Sequence record: SRR20825006_530
Reading direction: 5' to 3' (one strand)
Length of the DNA stretch: 33,668 nt
In this document: positions 3,287 through 26,351 of the stretch, in pieces
How the letters are laid out: the number at the start of each line of letters is the position of its first letter
Position numbering within the stretch: the first letter of the stretch is position 1
Made by a program: the position numbers and the translations under genes
The notes under the pieces: model-generated
Database searches by the model: none
Told to the model about the DNA's origin: nothing
The model's input: only the letters and a program-made list of their open reading frames with translations

Positions 3287-4852
3287 CTACTCCTCAATAA
3301 ATCCAACGGGTGCACGATAGTCGGAAGCATCTACCTTTGCGCCGTTCTTGCCATATTGCTCATTGATCTTTCCGAAGAAGATGGTCTTTGCGTCCGACGC
3401 ATTTGCGAAGCCATCTGCCGGTGTCCGCAACTGATCCTTGGACGTTGGATCCACCAGATACGGAGTGACGATCACGACCAGTTCGGTCTCTTCCTGAATG
3501 AAGTCACGTGATTGGAACAAAGCCCCAAGGATCGGCAACTTCTTCAGGCCTGGAACTTGGTCAAGGCTCTGACGTGACCGTGTCTGGATGAGACCTGCCA
3601 TCATCATGGAGCCGCCGGACGGAAGTTCAATCGTCGATTCAGCGCGCCGCACTGACAAGGCTGGTAGTGTCACGCCCTCCACTGTCACAACATTGCCGGA
3701 ATCATCAATCGTCGTTGTGCTGGTTCCCTGAAAGGCACCTTCTGACGAGAGCTCTGATACTTCAGTCGACACTTTCAGCGAAATGCGCCCTTCCGACAGC
3801 ACGACCGGCGTGAAGCCAAGGCCAACACCATAGGGTTTGAACTCGACGGTAATGCGTCCGTTATTGTCCTGGCCGACAGGAACCGGGAATTCACCCCCGG
3901 CAAGGAATTTCGCAGCTTCGCCAGACATGGCGACAATATTCGGTTCGGCCAGCGTGCGCACGACGCCAATCCGCTCCAATGCATTGATTTCGGCCCCGAT
4001 ACTGGATTGCAAATCCGTACCGACATAGTTTTGGTAACCAATTGTGCCACCGAAGCCGCCAAGGCTCTGTCCCTGAACCGGATAGCTCAGTGAACTGCCG
4101 ATATCGCCATTGAAAGAATATGGCAGGCCCGGCGCAAGCGCGGTGGTCCCGGAATCCACCGGCACACCGCTTCCATTATCCACAAATAGCTGCCGCTCCA
4201 CCAATGCAGCCAGATCTCCGAAACCCGGCGATCCGGTCAAATTGATTCCCAACTGCTTGACGGCATTGCGTTGCATCTCGACGATGCGCACTTCCAGAAG
4301 CACCTGGTCTTTCGCAGCGATGCTGATCATGTTGATGACTTGCGTGTTTTCGCCAGCCTGCACATAGGCAGAGACGAGACGCTCAACGGCATTGGATGCG
4401 CTCAAACTGTCTGCCGAACCAGTCAGAACCACGCTGCCATTCATGCCTTCAATGCGCACACGGGCGCCGGGCACATGGCGTGCCACGAGCTGCTCCAGCG
4501 ATGCCATGTCCATCTCGACCCCGATTTCGAGATTGAGGATCTGATTGCCGGCATTGTCGAATACGAACGCATTGGTCTGTCCAAAGCTCACGCCCCGGAA
4601 GATGATACGTTTCGCTGTCTGCACGACCGCGTCGGCAATGTCCGGATTGGTGATGACGACATCGGCGGCCGGAGTGTCGAGTTCGACAATCATCGACTTG
4701 TTCAGGCCGAGTGTGACCTGTTGGCTGTATTCCGATTGACCCGGATGCGTGATCCGTGTCCCCAAACTATCTGATTGGGCTTGTGCCACCGGAACGAGCG
4801 CAATGGCTGATGCCAATGCTGCAAGACCCGGTAAAATCCTGGACAATTTCAT
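3287..4852 (-). CDS. cpaC: Tad pilus secretin CpaC/RcpA
   Basis: Signal peptide; secretin motifs LAEPNIVAMSGEAAKFLAGGEFPVP and VPGLKKLPILGALF...ETELVVIVTPYLV. Confidence 0.95.
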   Translation of the reverse strand: MKLSRILPGLAALASAIALVPVAQAQSDSLGTRITHPGQSEYSQQVTLGLNKSMIVELDTPAADVVITNPDIADAVVQTAKRIIFRGVSFGQTNAFVFDNAGNQILNLEIGVEMDMASLEQLVARHVPGARVRIEGMNGSVVLTGSADSLSASNAVERLVSAYVQAGENTQVINMISIAAKDQVLLEVRIVEMQRNAVKQLGINLTGSPGFGDLAALVERQLFVDNGSGVPVDSGTTALAPGLPYSFNGDIGSSLSYPVQGQSLGGFGGTIGYQNYVGTDLQSSIGAEINALERIGVVRTLAEPNIVAMSGEAAKFLAGGEFPVPVGQDNNGRITVEFKPYGVGLGFTPVVLSEGRISLKVSTEVSELSSEGAFQGTSTTTIDDSGNVVTVEGVTLPALSVRRAESTIELPSGGSMMMAGLIQTRSRQSLDQVPGLKKLPILGALFQSRDFIQEETELVVIVTPYLVDPTSKDQLRTPADGFANASDAKTIFFGKINEQYGKNGAKVDASDYRAPVGFIEE

Positions 4853-22062: not shown

Positions 22063-23081
22063 AGGGCATCCTCCAGGTCTGACAGGGGCGGCAGATTCAT
22101 GCCGTCGCTGGCCTCTTCTTCGATGGCGGGTGCGCTGGTACGGATTGCGGCCCGCAACTTGGCGGAGCGTGCGCGCGGATTGCCTTCAACTTCGTTATCA
22201 GACGGCAGAACCGCCTTGGAAACAGCCAGCTCGAACGTGGAGTCGGGGCCTTTCTGCGCAACCGGCAAATGACGCGATCCGCCGCCCATCTTGCCGGCAC
22301 GGTTCTTCAACCACTGTTTCACCATACGGTCTTCCAGCGAGTGGAAGGCCACGATCACGAGACGGCCGCCCGGACGCAGCAGGCGTTCGGCAGCGTGCAG
22401 CGCACGGGCCAACTCTCCCAGCTCATCGTTCACATACATGCGGATGGCCTGAAACGTCAGCGTCGCCGGGTGAATACGCGCGCCCTTGCGCCCGCCCACG
22501 GCCTTTTCAACCGCATCGGCCAGTTCGGTGGTTGTCTCGAACGGCGTGTCATCACGGTGCAGCACAATCGCCCGGGCAATCCGGCGTGCCTGGCGCTCTT
22601 CGCCAAGACGGAAGATGATGTTCGCGAGGTCGCGCTCACTCATCATATTGACCACATCCGCCGCCGTTGGGCCTGTATCGCCCATGCGCATGTCCAGTGG
22701 ACCATGCTTCATGAAGGAAAAACCGCGCGCAGCCTGGTCAATCTGGAAACTGGAAACACCGATGTCGAGCACAACGCCGTCAACATGTTCATATCCCGCC
22801 GCACGGACGATGTCGTCCATTTCGCCGAAGCGACCGAGCAAGGGTACGAGACGTTCCGTCTTTTCCGCCATCTTCCGGGCGCGCGCAATGGCATCCACAT
22901 CGCGATCAATGCCAATCAGGGTGCATTTGGAAGACCCAAGAATGGCGCGGCTATAACCGCCGCCGCCAAACGTGCCGTCAACAATGATCTCCCCATCCCT
23001 GGGGGCGAGCCATTCCAGCACTTCATCCAGCATGACCGGTTTGTGGCCAGGGTCGGGAGCGAGGGGCGCGTCCTGTGTCAT
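22059..23081 (-). CDS. rsmH: 16S rRNA m4C1402 methyltransferase
   Basis: HKPVMLDEV, DGTFGGGGYS, DIGVSSFQID, GPLDMRM, FHSLEDR, NPRARSAKLR. Confidence 0.97.
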   Translation of the reverse strand: MTQDAPLAPDPGHKPVMLDEVLEWLAPRDGEIIVDGTFGGGGYSRAILGSSKCTLIGIDRDVDAIARARKMAEKTERLVPLLGRFGEMDDIVRAAGYEHVDGVVLDIGVSSFQIDQAARGFSFMKHGPLDMRMGDTGPTAADVVNMMSERDLANIIFRLGEERQARRIARAIVLHRDDTPFETTTELADAVEKAVGGRKGARIHPATLTFQAIRMYVNDELGELARALHAAERLLRPGGRLVIVAFHSLEDRMVKQWLKNRAGKMGGGSRHLPVAQKGPDSTFELAVSKAVLPSDNEVEGNPRARSAKLRAAIRTSAPAIEEEASDGMNLPPLSDLEDAL

Positions 23082-23593
23082 CAGCTGTCGCCCCCATCCA
23101 CGAGTTTCAGGGCGGCATTCCCCGAAGCCTGCTGGTGCAGCACTTCGGAATAGGCATGCCCGAGCGCTTCCAGCGTGTCTTCTTTCGCAGCCTCGGCGGC
23201 CATGGCGTCGAAATGTTCAGCATGGCGATCCGGGTTCCATATCTGGAAACTGTCCATATTGCCCGCGAATTTGACGCGATCGGTCAGGTTTGCCGCCTTC
23301 ATCAACTCGTCAGACAGTTTGATGCGGCCGGTATCGTCCATCTTCAGGTCGGCAGAGCCTGCGATGATGCGTGTGACTAGGGCCTTGCGGGCGGGGGAGT
23401 GCGGGGCGAGCCGGGTCAGCGTCGCCCGATACATTGCCATCAGGGCCTCACCGCCGCCTTCCAGGCAACCGGATCCGTCGAGCGCCGACCAGAGGAAAAT
23501 CCGGTTTCCACCGCCCAGCGCAGCGCGAAAGGAAGCGGGTATGGAAACCCGACCCTTTGCATCAATAGCGCTTTCATAGGTGGAAACGAACAC
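23081..23593 (-). CDS. mraZ: Division/cell wall cluster transcriptional regulator MraZ
   Basis: Two DxxGR motifs (DAKGRVSIPASFR, DDTGRIKL). Probable GTG start at 23593; first gene of the dcw cluster. Confidence 0.92.
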   Translation of the reverse strand: MFVSTYESAIDAKGRVSIPASFRAALGGGNRIFLWSALDGSGCLEGGGEALMAMYRATLTRLAPHSPARKALVTRIIAGSADLKMDDTGRIKLSDELMKAANLTDRVKFAGNMDSFQIWNPDRHAEHFDAMAAEAAKEDTLEALGHAYSEVLHQQASGNAALKLVDGGDS

Positions 23594-23632
23594 CCGCCAA
23601 CCCTGACTTTGTCTGCCTAAACCCCGCATGGG

Positions 23633-23984: not shown

Positions 23985-24013
23985 CCATGGGTCTTGGAAC
24001 ATTCGCCGCGCAA

Positions 24014-24547
24014 CTAGCCGGCCGTGACCGCCTCAGCAGCCAGCACGCGGGCGACTGCATTGACCACAGCGCCGATGCGGATGCCCGCCTGGATCTGCTC
24101 GGTCGACAAGCCGTGCTTGCGCAATTCGGCTTCATGCGCATCGAGACACATGCCGCAGCCATTCACGGCGGACACACCAAGGGAATAAAGCTCGAAGTCC
24201 GCTTTCTCGATTCCCGGCGCACCGATCACGTTCATGCGCAGCTTGGCTGGCAAGGTCTGGTACGTCGAATTGCTGATCAGGTGGATCGACCGGTAATAGA
24301 CATTGTTCATGCCCATGATCGCGCTGGCAGCTTTCGCAGCCTTGATCGCTTCGGGGCTCAGCTTTCCGTCCGCTTCCGCTTCCAGCGCCGTCAGCGTCTG
24401 GGGTTCACCCACAGCATGGGCACAGGCGAGGAAACAGCCATATTTCTGTTGGTCGCTCAACAGGGTCTCGTTCATCAGCGAGCCGAGATTGAGCTTCAGA
24501 TCCTTCGCATAGTCAGGCAGCGAAGATTTCAGGGACTCGATAGACAT
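24014..24547 (-). CDS. ahpD: Alkyl hydroperoxide reductase AhpD
   Basis: LPDYAKDLKLNL, MGMNNVYYR and SAVNGCGMCLDAH (CxxC) motifs. Confidence 0.95.
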   Translation of the reverse strand: MSIESLKSSLPDYAKDLKLNLGSLMNETLLSDQQKYGCFLACAHAVGEPQTLTALEAEADGKLSPEAIKAAKAASAIMGMNNVYYRSIHLISNSTYQTLPAKLRMNVIGAPGIEKADFELYSLGVSAVNGCGMCLDAHEAELRKHGLSTEQIQAGIRIGAVVNAVARVLAAEAVTAG

Positions 24548-24566
24548 GAATCCTCATCCTTCCGGA

Positions 24567-24769
24567 ATTCGTTGTTTTGATGGGGTGGGGAGCGAATGGG
24601 TCCGACAAGCCTTGCAGGCTAGAGGGGTGGGAGTGCCAACGTCCGGAACTGGGTGGACGGAAGGCCTGCCGGACCTTTCGCGACGCTGAAGGGAAGATGC
24701 CTCATGGGTGGGGGAGGGAGTGAGACATCTTCCCGGAAGTTTCAGCGTTGCGCTCTATCTATGCGCAAC
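24567..24769 (-). ncRNA. Candidate structured RNA element between ahpC and ahpD with CCACCC-containing loops
   Basis: 14-bp and 15-bp stems with G-U pairs on the minus strand and four C-rich loops (see findings). Function and family unassigned. Confidence 0.5.
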
Positions 24770-25330
24770 CTAGGCAGCTGGTTCCAAAATATCTCCGCCA
24801 ACCGGACGATTACATGGGCACAGCTCATCGGTCTGCAGGGCATCCAGCACGCGGAGCGTGTCTGCAGGGCTGCGGCCGACGTTCAGATTGGTCACATAAA
24901 CGTGCTGAATCACGTTGTGCGGGTCGACAACATATGTCGCGCGATAGGCAACGCCTTCAGACGGCTCACGCACGCCAAGACCGTCAACCAGCTCACCGCG
25001 GGTGTCCGCAAACTGCCAGATCGGCAGCTCTGCGAGGTCTGCGTGGTCGCGGCGCCATGCCAGCTTCACGAACTCGTTGTCGGTGGACCCGCCGAGCACA
25101 ACCGCGTCGCGGTCTTCGAAGTCGCCGGACAGGCGGGCGAATTCAGCGATTTCAGTTGGGCAAACGAAGGTGAAGTCTTTCGGGTAGAAGAAGATGACTT
25201 TCCATTTACCCTCAAAGGAATCCTGCGTGATGGGCTCGAATGCGCTTTCGCCATTCTGCTCATGCTGCATGAATTTCGGCTTTACGCCCGTGACTGTGAA
25301 CTCGGGAAGCTTTTCGCCAATGCCAAGCAT
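24770..25330 (-). CDS. ahpC: Peroxiredoxin AhpC (AhpD-coupled type)
   Basis: FFYPKDFTFVCPTEI and C-terminal DELCPCN. GGAGA RBS before ATG 25330. Confidence 0.95.
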   Translation of the reverse strand: MLGIGEKLPEFTVTGVKPKFMQHEQNGESAFEPITQDSFEGKWKVIFFYPKDFTFVCPTEIAEFARLSGDFEDRDAVVLGGSTDNEFVKLAWRRDHADLAELPIWQFADTRGELVDGLGVREPSEGVAYRATYVVDPHNVIQHVYVTNLNVGRSPADTLRVLDALQTDELCPCNRPVGGDILEPAA

Positions 25331-25416
25331 AGTGGATCTCCTGGGATAAGATGTTGAGGCTGCCGGAACGGTGGGCCCGGTGGCCGTGCTTTCTCGCAGT
25401 TGCGGCAAAAAGGAAA

Positions 25417-25453
25417 ATTGATAATTCCCATTGCCGGTATAGATTGTCTCTAT
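25417..25453. promoter_or_regulatory. OxyR binding site
   Basis: ATTG-N7-CCAT-N7-ATAG-N7-CTAT has the exact spacing of the ATAG-N7-CTAT-N7-ATAG-N7-CTAT consensus; lies between the divergent ahpC and oxyR genes. Confidence 0.85.
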
Positions 25454-26351
25454 GATTATACCGACCCTTCGCCAACTGCAGTATCTAGTGGCTCTTGGAG
25501 AGACCGGCTCGTTCTCTCGGGCCGCCGAGGCGTGCTATGTGACGCAGCCCACCTTGTCAGCCGGGATCAAGGAATTGGAGGATTTGCTGGGCGTCAAACT
25601 GGCCGAACGCGAACCGCGCGGCGCCAAGCTGACTCATGCCGGAGAGCTGGCGGTGTCGCGCGCCAATGCGCTGATCAATGATGCCCATTCCCTGGTCCAG
25701 TCGGTTCAGAGCGCCGGCGCTCTGCTCACGGGCCCCTTTCATCTCGGCGCGATCCCGACCATCGCGCCCTTCGTCCTGCCAGCGGCAGTCCGCGCCCTCA
25801 GCGAGCAATATCCCCAGCTCAAACTCTACCTGCACGAAGAGAAGACACCGCGCCTGATCGACCAGTTGCGCACGCGCACTCTGGACGCCGCCCTGATTGC
25901 CCTGCCCTGGGACGTTCCGGGCATCGAGATGCTGCCGCTATTCGATGATGAATTCCTGTTTGCCGCGCCCGCTTCACACCCGCTGGCCAAGAAAAACGGC
26001 CTCTCGCCAGAAGACCTGGCGGGCGAGAACCTCCTCCTGCTCGAAGACGGGCACTGCTTGCGCGATCATGCACTCTCCATCTGTCGCATGAAGACCGGCA
26101 ACGGCACTGATCAGGTGGCCGCTACTTCACTCGGAACATTGGTCAACATGATTGCCGGGGGCCTTGGCGTCTCGCTCCTGCCCAAACTCGCCACAGATAA
26201 CGGCCTGAACATCGGACCGGACGTCGCCGTACGCGAATTCGTCAGTCCCGTGGTCGGCCGCCAGATCGGTATCGCCTGGCGCACCGGCAGCCCACGCGAG
26301 GCCGATGCCCGCAAGATCGGTGAAATCGTCAAGGCCGCCACCCGGCACTAG
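25452..26351 (+). CDS. oxyR: Hydrogen peroxide-inducible LysR-family regulator OxyR
   Basis: LysR HTH (TLRQLQY...FSRAAEACYVTQPTLS), GAIPTIAP, redox motif LLEDGHCLRDHALSIC; divergent from ahpC. Confidence 0.95.
   Translation: MIIPTLRQLQYLVALGETGSFSRAAEACYVTQPTLSAGIKELEDLLGVKLAEREPRGAKLTHAGELAVSRANALINDAHSLVQSVQSAGALLTGPFHLGAIPTIAPFVLPAAVRALSEQYPQLKLYLHEEKTPRLIDQLRTRTLDAALIALPWDVPGIEMLPLFDDEFLFAAPASHPLAKKNGLSPEDLAGENLLLLEDGHCLRDHALSICRMKTGNGTDQVAATSLGTLVNMIAGGLGVSLLPKLATDNGLNIGPDVAVREFVSPVVGRQIGIAWRTGSPREADARKIGEIVKAATRH

Follow-up and report, generated by a model that had tools for sequence, protein, structure and literature searches.

A structured RNA with invariant C-rich loops between ahpC and ahpD of marine Hyphomonas, a candidate small RNA kept in genomes without ahpCD

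INTRODUCTION

OxyS of Escherichia coli is a small RNA (sRNA) that is encoded divergently from oxyR and is activated by OxyR. MicL has its promoter inside the upstream open reading frame (ORF), and DapZ, CpxQ, and SorX are sRNAs derived from 3'UTRs. RsaE-type sRNAs present C-rich loops that pair with G-rich or Shine-Dalgarno-like stretches of their target mRNAs. Hairpins between cistrons can also work as stabilizers, as in the puf operon of Rhodobacter and the malE-malF REP, where the stem suffices. Proximity of the sRNA to the ecfG-nepR-phyR locus is typical of GsrN but is not universal.

GsrN of Caulobacter crescentus is a sigma-T (EcfG)-dependent sRNA that activates katG, and its C-rich loop pairs with a G-tract in the katG leader, as its description states (PMC5869019); the sigma-T motif published there is GGAAC/CGTT, with a spacing of 15 to 17 nt. 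The cuckoo RNAs, or CcsR1-4 (RSs0680), carry CCUCCUCCC in every hairpin loop, and the family, with its conserved loops on covarying stems, is known from Rhizobiales and Rhodobacterales; the paper that describes it (PMC4615179) mentions neither ahpC nor Caulobacter nor Hyphomonas. The literature searched holds no description of a structured ahpC-ahpD intergenic RNA or of a related Hyphomonas sRNA. The spacer RNA described here lies on the minus strand of a 33,668-nt stretch of DNA (SRR20825006_530, hereafter the window). In our best reading, it resembles GsrN, cuckoo, and OxyS in design and is a member of none of them.

RESULTS

Gene setting of the spacer

The host of the window is a marine Hyphomonas, and the closest named record for AhpD, an uncultured Hyphomonas MAG, is 97% identical. 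The minus strand carries, in this order, ahpC, a 222-nt spacer, ahpD, mraZ, and rsmH, and a gene for an OxyR-like LysR regulator diverges from ahpC.

25452..26351, plus strand: oxyR-like LysR regulator (Pfam HTH_1 and LysR_substrate), divergent from ahpC
24770..25330, minus strand: ahpC, AhpC/TSA peroxiredoxin (Pfam AhpC-TSA, E value of 8e-28; the best NCBIfam match is AhpC, below cutoff)
24014..24547, minus strand: ahpD, alkylhydroperoxidase (NCBIfam TIGR00777, 255.5 bits, above the cutoff of 191.95; Pfam CMD)
23081..23629, minus strand: mraZ, an ORF whose homologue in locus L169 has the Pfam MraZ domain; downstream marker of the shared locus

The oxyR-like gene has OxyR PRK11151 as its best NCBIfam match (E value of 2.4e-72), at 243.8 bits and below the curated cutoff of 329. 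The ahpC start at 25330 was picked by aligning MLGIGEKLPEF with relatives.

Fold of the spacer RNA

The initial annotation had listed four hairpin elements with CCACCC loops on the minus strand of the spacer and had proposed them as an array of tandem sRNAs, possibly of the cuckoo type.

24769-24747, minus strand: hairpin (a), GTTGCGC/GCGCAAC, read from the sequence
24734-24721 and 24704-24691, minus strand: arms GGGAAGATGTCTCA and TGAGGCATCTTCCC of hairpin (b), with the loop CTCCCTCCCCCACCCA at 24720-24705
24675-24661 and 24613-24599, minus strand: basal stem (c), GGTCCGGCAGGCCTT and AAGGCTTGTCGGACC, enclosing the arms CGTCC/GGACG and GGC/GCC
24597-24567, minus strand: hairpin (d), ATTCG...CGAAT, read from the sequence

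Every listed stem and loop was found at these positions, and the three non-Watson-Crick pairs of the two main stems (b and c) are, as claimed, all G-U on the minus strand. Counting both strands, the window as a whole contains 18 occurrences of CCACCC, where 19 are expected; 4 of the 18 are minus-strand copies within 24583-24711, a 130-nt part of the spacer. The predicted folding energy of the 222-nt spacer is −87.4 kcal/mol, compared with a mean of −60.6 kcal/mol (standard deviation, 4.4) for 200 dinucleotide shuffles, none of which folded as well (z = −6.1). This minimum-free-energy structure contains hairpin (a), hairpin (b) within part of an outer stem, and junction (c), and hairpin (d) is absent from it. 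A cmscan search of 24000-25500 with 4,227 Rfam families at an E value of ≤10 gave no relevant match to the spacer RNA, so that its proposed novelty stands with respect to Rfam; the sole match in this region, IS1222_FSE (E value of 3.6), lies inside ahpD on the opposite strand.

Conservation and covariation

Comparison with related loci redefines the RNA as one molecule of two domains, a hairpin followed by a three-way junction, in place of the four-hairpin array.

24597..24754, minus strand: conserved RNA core, matched by covariance model R1 at 176 bits
24679..24752, minus strand: domain 1, outer stem CGC.ACGC/GCGU.GCG around hairpin (b) in the RNAalifold consensus
24705..24720, minus strand: C-rich loop CUCCCUCCCCCACCCA, putative main seed, with 15 of its nt invariant on a variable stem
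24599..24675, minus strand: domain 2, a 15-bp basal stem that opens into a three-way junction, whose arms 1 and 2 end in the loops ACCCAGUUCC and ACUCCCACCCCUCUA, respectively
24548..24598, minus strand: variable C-rich tail, without a U-tract, that holds the ahpD ribosome-binding site and hairpin (d), itself unconserved; poorly conserved in the alignment except for GGAAGGATGA ahead of the ATG

In 10 related spacers, hairpin (b), the outer stem surrounding it, and junction (c) are kept with compensatory changes. The 15-nt loop CUCCCUCCCCCACCC (CTCCCTCCCCCACCC) of hairpin (b) is identical in all 10, while the stem beneath it varies, with compensatory changes at 6 of 12 pairs and 99% of cells paired. 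The RNAalifold structure of these spacers comprises 38 pairs, with 98.0% of cells paired and 9 pairs changed on both sides, counts that, like the other covariation counts given here, overstate independence, the sequences being related. The observed pairing or covariation score was reached by 0 of 500 shuffles, and slid controls of the same alignment were 35 to 44% paired. The basal stem of the junction is mostly invariant and retains its G-U pairs, and arm 1 covaries; the conserved G-U pairs fix the transcribed strand as the minus strand.

The junction also aligns across both clades, that is, together with the stand-alone copies described below. Its 21 pairs, counted over 21 distinct sequences, include 8 with compensatory changes, and 94.8% of cells are paired; covariation is found at 5 of 7 pairs of arm 1, and slid controls were 25 to 48% paired. 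Hairpin 1 of the stand-alone copies is 98.1% paired, with 2 compensatory pairs and several G-U/G-C switches, and its loop CAACUCCCCACCCA, which is related to loop (b), is invariant in 11 of 11 copies. RNAalifold on the full-length MAFFT alignment of the 21 sequences recovered domain 2 and not hairpin 1; since the two clades misalign there, the pairs of hairpin 1 were counted per clade. An alignment made by the covariance model was left out of the counts, as it contains two antisense matches.

The other two hairpins of the initial annotation did not hold up as conserved elements. Hairpin (a) is missing from the clade of G016, G021, and G050, and the stretch with hairpin (d) is a variable tail in the 10-spacer alignment, so that the conserved unit runs from about 24754 to about 24600 (∼155 nt). 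Hairpin (a) coincides instead with a promoter-like −10 region (see below), and no loop contains CCUCCUCCC, which removes the cuckoo-type array. The 10-spacer alignment, the covariation, and the loop invariance bear out a conserved, structured minus-strand RNA whose C-rich loops are its most constrained parts. A reading as a small protein was rejected: 1- and 2-nt indels separate close relatives inside the conserved core, and the G-U pairs suit an RNA.

Promoter-like motif upstream of the RNA

Alignment of the 90 nt upstream of every RNA copy revealed a motif, preceded by an A/T-rich stretch, that is an ECF-type, predicted promoter.

24760..24790, minus strand: ECF-sigma-type promoter-like motif, consisting of a T-rich stretch, GGAAC at 24785-24781, 17 nt, and CATA at 24763-24760

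Each of the 24 copies, which come from two gene contexts, has GGAAC-N17-[C/G][A/G]TA (23 by regular expression and that of G062 by alignment), and the motif ends 5 to 9 nt ahead of the first helix in all of them, while the letters of the 17-nt spacer vary freely. The −10 element is CATA in 18 copies, CGTA in 5, and GATA in 1, so that the motif is possibly of EcfG type with a −10 element off consensus. In the window, the last six codons of ahpC overlap the −35 box. The ahpC genes of the G016 clade stop earlier, and the identical TATTTTGGAACC sits there in noncoding DNA past the stop, which argues that it is conserved as DNA and not as codons. Among 65 other alphaproteobacterial ahpC-ahpD loci, the motif was found in one record only, a Hyphomonas locus of the window type.

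The ECF-size sigma genes of G001, the genome nearest to the window, number five. Two of them are EcfG-like, and the 11-kb locus in which they lie resembles a general stress response (GSR) locus and contains six GGAAC-N16-C[AG]T[AT] sites against 1.25 expected, with CGTT, CATT, and CGTA as −10 variants. Genome-wide, TGGAAC-N16-17-CRTA is not enriched in G001 (15 matches, compared with 20 for the reversed control), and no regulon can be read from it.

Transcript ends and read-through

The stretch was found in 18 public runs, 13 of which are recorded as RNA and come from 10 studies. Four RNA-library runs from four studies were compared as contigs, which give no strict starts, strands, or levels.

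25373, minus strand: approximate 5' end of the ahpC transcript, where the contigs of 4 of 4 RNA-library runs (4 studies) stop, although contigs cannot prove a start
24600, minus strand: discrete 3' end of an abundant ahpC-plus-RNA transcript, where Illumina adapter letters are fused exactly in runs X1 and X4 (two studies)

Depth in the RNA runs is 0 to 3.6 on the oxyR side of 25373 versus 43 to 412 on ahpC. One contig spans 23991-25373 and is compatible with an ahpC-RNA-ahpD transcript, in keeping with the cotranscription with ahpC that had been proposed. The contig 24600-25373 has a depth of 412 in X1 and 72 in X4, and those of ahpD have 50 and 8; this ∼8-fold lower depth of ahpD relative to ahpC plus RNA is a ratio of per-contig means that decay instead of termination may explain. 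The 3' arm of the junction extends a single nucleotide beyond position 24600. We read this as an abundant, discrete RNA 3' end where the junction closes, past which roughly one transcript in ten continues. On the 5' end, level, and strand of the sRNA, the contigs are silent, and that they show no break near 24754 carries no weight. The ahpD contig of X4 ends in adapter letters at 24557, within the ahpD ribosome-binding site, a processing hint only at its depth of 8.

In the stand-alone copies, the junction is followed by the U-tract UAUUUUUCUU (UAUUUU(U)C...), forming an intrinsic terminator, in place of which copies of the window type have CAUUCGCUCCCC or AAUACGCUUCC, the window itself having CAUUCGCUCCCC. 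A scan for intrinsic terminators made no call inside the ahpC-ahpD spacer of the window. The end at 24600 could arise from U-poor termination or from cleavage in the tail followed by trimming.

Distribution and copies without ahpCD

BLAST found the spacer in 9 of 80 Hyphomonas genomes, in one copy each, at 73 to 99% identity. G001 (99% identical) has one full match, its other matches being ≤30 nt with E values of 0.014 or worse. Model R1, built on the core, retrieved exactly one full-length copy in each of 23 of the 80 genomes, comprising the 9 known loci at 146 to 176 bits and 14 new loci at 29 to 49 bits; model R2, the junction alone, retrieved single copies in 24. The RNA is thus single copy and not a dispersed repeat, an outcome on which the initial annotation had made its reading depend. 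R1 had no match in a sample of 123 genomes from 17 other genera of the family, nor R2 in a sample of 140 genomes from 39 other genera of the order, with E values that are rough in both searches.

The new loci have a different gene setting. No AhpC or AhpD was found by tblastn within 1.5 kb of the 14 new loci (the stand-alone loci other than that of G063), and in all 15 stand-alone loci the RNA lies between a divergent oxyR (84 to 85% identical) and a downstream mraZ, as identified by tblastn. The oxyR start is 115 to 230 nt upstream of the RNA, and the gap between the RNA and mraZ is ∼430 nt. The stand-alone locus thereby equals the oxyR-mraZ locus of the window minus ahpC and ahpD, in accordance with a Pfam check of one locus. 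The 15 genomes, 9 of which are reported as 100% complete and 0 to 3% contaminated, gave no AhpD match anywhere at an E value of ≤1e-20, a protein present in 37 of the 80 Hyphomonas genomes. The predicted folds of the 14 new loci follow the same design, namely, a long hairpin with the loop CAACUCCCCACCCA and then a junction closed by GGCCCGGCAAGCC...GGCUUGUCGGGCC, with the arm loops CCACCCAUC and CCGUCCCCCUCCCAA.

The RNA is therefore kept without the genes that it would regulate in cis, and it need not depend on the OxyR-ahpC promoter. In an OxyR tree, made by a quick method and with many open forks, the outgroups and a basal Hyphomonas clade have ahpCD adjoining oxyR, which favors a probable loss of ahpCD in the stand-alone lineages rather than an insertion. 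The stand-alone label takes two changes on this tree, the starred branches force only one, and the number of losses is not fixed. Both the ECF-type motif inside the end of ahpC and the persistence of the RNA in genomes without ahpCD go beyond the initial annotation.

Other ahpC-ahpD spacers

A further 21 Hyphomonas ahpC-ahpD spacers, which R1 and R2 do not match, are 102 to 242 nt long and structured, with C-rich loops and without the GGAAC motif; four of them (G011, G007, G060, and G019) present an analogous hairpin and three-way junction. Structured ahpC-ahpD spacers of 70 to 280 nt with a C>G skew are common in alphaproteobacteria, and many are terminator-like. Among other alphaproteobacterial spacers, 26 of 64 have a hairpin of ≥6 bp whose apical loop contains a C-rich pyrimidine run (CCUCCCCC, CUCUCCCCCC), a count that is descriptive since the loci are related to one another. 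Such hairpins occur in 1 of 63 stretches of equal length after ahpD, in 0 of 64 reverse complements, and, over 20 rounds of shuffling, in a mean of 5 and a maximum of 8 spacers.

Target searches

Sites of GGGTGGGGA number 18 in G001 (15 in the control) and 27 in G090 (12 in the control), and no convincing conserved target emerged from them; 1 of the 18 sites in G001 lies at a ribosome-binding site, 7 nt before the ATG of a glutamine-amidotransferase-like ORF. A search of G001 with the 15-nt loop at ≤3 mismatches gave 71 matches versus 69 in the control, thus no sibling copies or long complementary target, and the only exact match is the RNA locus itself. In G001, the katG leader has, ∼45 nt ahead of the start, the sequence GGGAGGGA, to which UCCCUCCC in loop (b) is complementary, a weak lead; the katG leader of G090 has no match of that kind to loop (b).

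DISCUSSION

Comparison with described RNAs

The likeness to GsrN concerns design features, and neither R1 nor R2 finds a match outside Hyphomonas. In both RNAs, a 5' hairpin with an exposed C-rich loop is the most conserved part (here invariant in 10 of 10 and 11 of 11 copies), the 3' structure serves as a terminator (a putative one here), and the −35 box GGAAC (predicted here) stands at a 15- to 17-nt spacing (17 nt in 24 of 24 copies here). Both are also linked to peroxide defense, GsrN via katG and the spacer RNA via the oxyR-ahpCD locus. They differ in that GsrN has ∼100 nt and two hairpins, whereas the spacer RNA, of ∼155 nt, includes a three-way junction and presents three loops rich in C, and in the −10 element, which is CGTT for GsrN and CATA or CGTA (one GATA) for the spacer RNA. 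Unlike GsrN, the spacer RNA is located off the GSR locus; in G001 it is on contig C18, whereas the ECF- and GGAAC-rich locus is on C15.

As in OxyS, the RNA is the first element transcribed divergently from oxyR in 15 Hyphomonas genomes, and the OxyR-side block ATCAA..CTTTTTG.CGCA is kept at the stand-alone loci. In contrast, the RNA has no Rfam similarity at an E value of ≤10, with the OxyS model included in the search, and ahpC intervenes in the window. With MicL and with such 3'UTR-derived sRNAs as DapZ, CpxQ, and SorX, it shares an ECF-sigma-type promoter (predicted here) at the end of the upstream coding sequence and a 3' end common with the upstream mRNA; it differs from them in being intercistronic, so that ahpD expression needs read-through, and in being a free-standing gene in sister species. 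The puf and malE-malF stabilizers similarly have a stable structure after the first cistron that coincides with the 3' end of an abundant upstream segment, but the loops of the spacer RNA are invariant and the element outlives the operon.

A candidate sRNA nested in the ahpCD operon

We consider it rather probable that the spacer is an sRNA gene of ∼155 nt nested in the operon that also caps the ahpC mRNA and throttles ahpD. What suggests a regulator with a function of its own is that related species kept the RNA after losing ahpC and ahpD. Its 5' domain would display the invariant C-rich loop on a hairpin and its 3' junction two more, the junction being the putative 3'-end or terminator structure. 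Two routes probably lead to the RNA, one from its own ECF-sigma-type promoter, GGAAC-N17-CATA, and the other through the OxyR-side transcript of ahpC, whose last part, up to the end at 24600, is the RNA. In trans, the exposed C-rich loops would most likely pair with G-rich or Shine-Dalgarno-like stretches of mRNAs, a step suggested by the analogy with GsrN (PMC5869019) and cuckoo (PMC4615179), by the invariance of loops and not of stems, and by the survival of the RNA after loss of ahpCD. In cis, the 3' structure without a U-tract may cap the ahpC mRNA and let a minority of transcripts continue into ahpD. Promoter activity, the sigma factor used, processing, action in trans, and targets are what we infer in this scheme.

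A more ambitious version, which we put forward tentatively, makes the RNA the Hyphomonas counterpart of both OxyS and GsrN: a C-rich sRNA with three seeds that would integrate OxyR (through the ahpC promoter or the divergent oxyR promoter) and an ECF or general stress sigma factor (through its own promoter), with a leaky terminator as a valve for AhpD versus AhpC, and with the C-rich-loop hairpins of 26 of 64 other spacers as simpler relatives.

Alternative explanations

Action purely in cis is the strongest of the alternatives, if an unlikely one. The stable stem-loops of the spacer would then guard the ahpC mRNA at its 3' end and dampen read-through, giving much AhpC and little AhpD, with no role in trans. 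The discrete 3' end at the junction foot and the ∼8-fold lower depth of the ahpD contig are what such an element would leave, and the structured, C>G-skewed, often terminator-like spacers that are widespread in alphaproteobacteria, including the 26 of 64 with a long hairpin and a C-rich apical loop, point the same way. However, the RNA persists, together with its loops and the upstream motif, in 15 genomes that lack ahpD (and, at the 14 loci searched, ahpC); a stabilizer requires a stem, not 15 invariant loop nucleotides; and the conserved GGAAC-N17-CRTA would have no role.

Still less probable is that the RNA binds protein, serving as a sponge for a poly(C)-binding factor or recruiting it, or that it regulates the downstream ahpD or mraZ in cis as a leader or riboswitch-like element. 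Three similar C-rich loops on a rigid scaffold would suit the former, and the stand-alone junction followed by a terminator resembles an expression platform, in an RNA whose orientation is always that of mraZ. Yet the downstream gene is not the same in the two clades, ∼430 nt separate the RNA from mraZ, known riboswitch or leader models in Rfam give no match at an E value of ≤10, and no candidate binding protein was identified.

Membership in the cuckoo/CcsR family, whose tandem hairpin sRNAs with anti-Shine-Dalgarno loops are cut out of a stress transcript, is very improbable in spite of real resemblances. As in the described family (PMC4615179), compensatory mutations alter the stems beneath conserved C-rich loops that are pyrimidine only and anti-Shine-Dalgarno-like, and the RNA is stress linked by its gene context and probably cotranscribed with the upstream gene. 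The loop motif is nevertheless CUCCCUCCCCCACCC or UCCCCACCC, with CCUCCUCCC absent from the spacer and from every loop, and the 2 to 4 adjacent similar hairpins of cuckoo contrast with a hairpin in an outer stem plus a three-way junction. The spacer RNA is, moreover, present in one copy per genome, gives no relevant Rfam match at an E value of ≤10, and belongs to a Caulobacterales host and another gene context, whereas the cuckoo family is described from Rhizobiales and Rhodobacterales (PMC4615179).

That the spacer is a REP-like repeat dispersed in the genome, or that its fold is a product of chance in GC-rich DNA, can practically be dismissed: GC-rich matches of 15 to 30 nt to the basal stem region do occur elsewhere in relatives, but BLAST and two covariance models agree on a single full-length copy in each genome (no other match exceeds 38 nt or has an E value below 0.005), the 15-nt loop at ≤3 mismatches has hardly more matches than its control (71 versus 69), and covariation and the z score of −6.1 contradict a chance fold.

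Implications

The same RNA, nested in an operon in some species and a free gene in sister species, offers a natural experiment that separates a role in cis from a role in trans. The C-rich apical loops behind ahpC in many alphaproteobacteria suggest a theme wider than one genus, and if the RNA is indeed the counterpart of OxyS and GsrN, they would belong to an old, unrecognized class of anti-Shine-Dalgarno sRNAs derived from the 3' end of ahpC. If the sRNA reading is true, this is a new sRNA family for a poorly studied marine genus, and peroxide defense (OxyR and AhpCD) would be tied to an ECF-type stress promoter at the RNA level, in parallel with GsrN and katG in Caulobacter.

The 3′ end of ahpC and its promoter-like box

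In the clade of the window, AhpC terminates in ...GGDILEPAA, and the final ahpC codons overlap the conserved TTTTGGAACC box (window 24770-24790). The ahpC open reading frame of the clade of Hyphomonas genomes G016, G021, and G050 ends approximately 28 nt sooner, and the TTTTGGAACC box is noncoding there. Four diverged Hyphomonas loci (L244 to L247, from genomes G011, G007, G060, and G019) have ahpC-ahpD spacers of 207 to 242 nt that fold into a hairpin and a three-way junction with C-rich loops. These four spacers match neither the covariance model of the RNA core nor that of the junction alone, having diverged beyond both. They present TGTAAT at the position expected for GGAAC, which may represent a decayed or changed putative promoter.

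The general-stress-like locus of G001, the nearest to the window among the genomes compared (L202, G001:C15:62000-73000), encodes two ECF sigma factors that resemble EcfG, one of 198 and one of 201 amino acids. GGAAC-N16-C[AG]T[AT] sites occur six times in this locus versus 1.25 expected, and include a divergent pair at 3383-3458.

Candidate target and transcript ends

The katG leader of G001 (L204, the region upstream of katG) contains GGGAGGGA, which is complementary to UCCCUCCC of loop b, the invariant C-rich loop and putative main seed of the Hyphomonas RNA. OxyR-box-like repeats of the ATAG..CTAT type are found upstream of katG in all three regions (L203, L204, and L205).

The ahpD contig of RNA-library run X4 spans 23989-24557 at depth 8 and runs into adapter letters within the ahpD ribosome-binding site, and 24558-24599 is without coverage. 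The end at 24557 may be a processing site, or noise.

ahpC-ahpD spacers of other alphaproteobacteria

A long hairpin with a C-rich pyrimidine apical loop (such as CCUCCCCC, CUCUCCCCCC, or AUCUCCC) is present in 26 of 64 ahpC-ahpD spacers from other alphaproteobacteria (L041 to L119), and a U-tract often follows it. Among the controls, taken from downstream of ahpD, only 1 of 63 stretches has such a hairpin.

Near-perfect, very long hairpins occur in five Sphingomonadales spacers (L114, L110, L079, L082, and L088). That of L114 folds with −117.9 kcal/mol across 169 nt, with approximately 45 consecutive pairs in one run. These look like inverted-repeat or REP-type insertions rather than the C-rich-loop design.

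The alphaproteobacterial C-rich-loop hairpins may be related to the Hyphomonas RNA as simpler forms, or they may represent a theme of ahpC 3′ ends in its own right.
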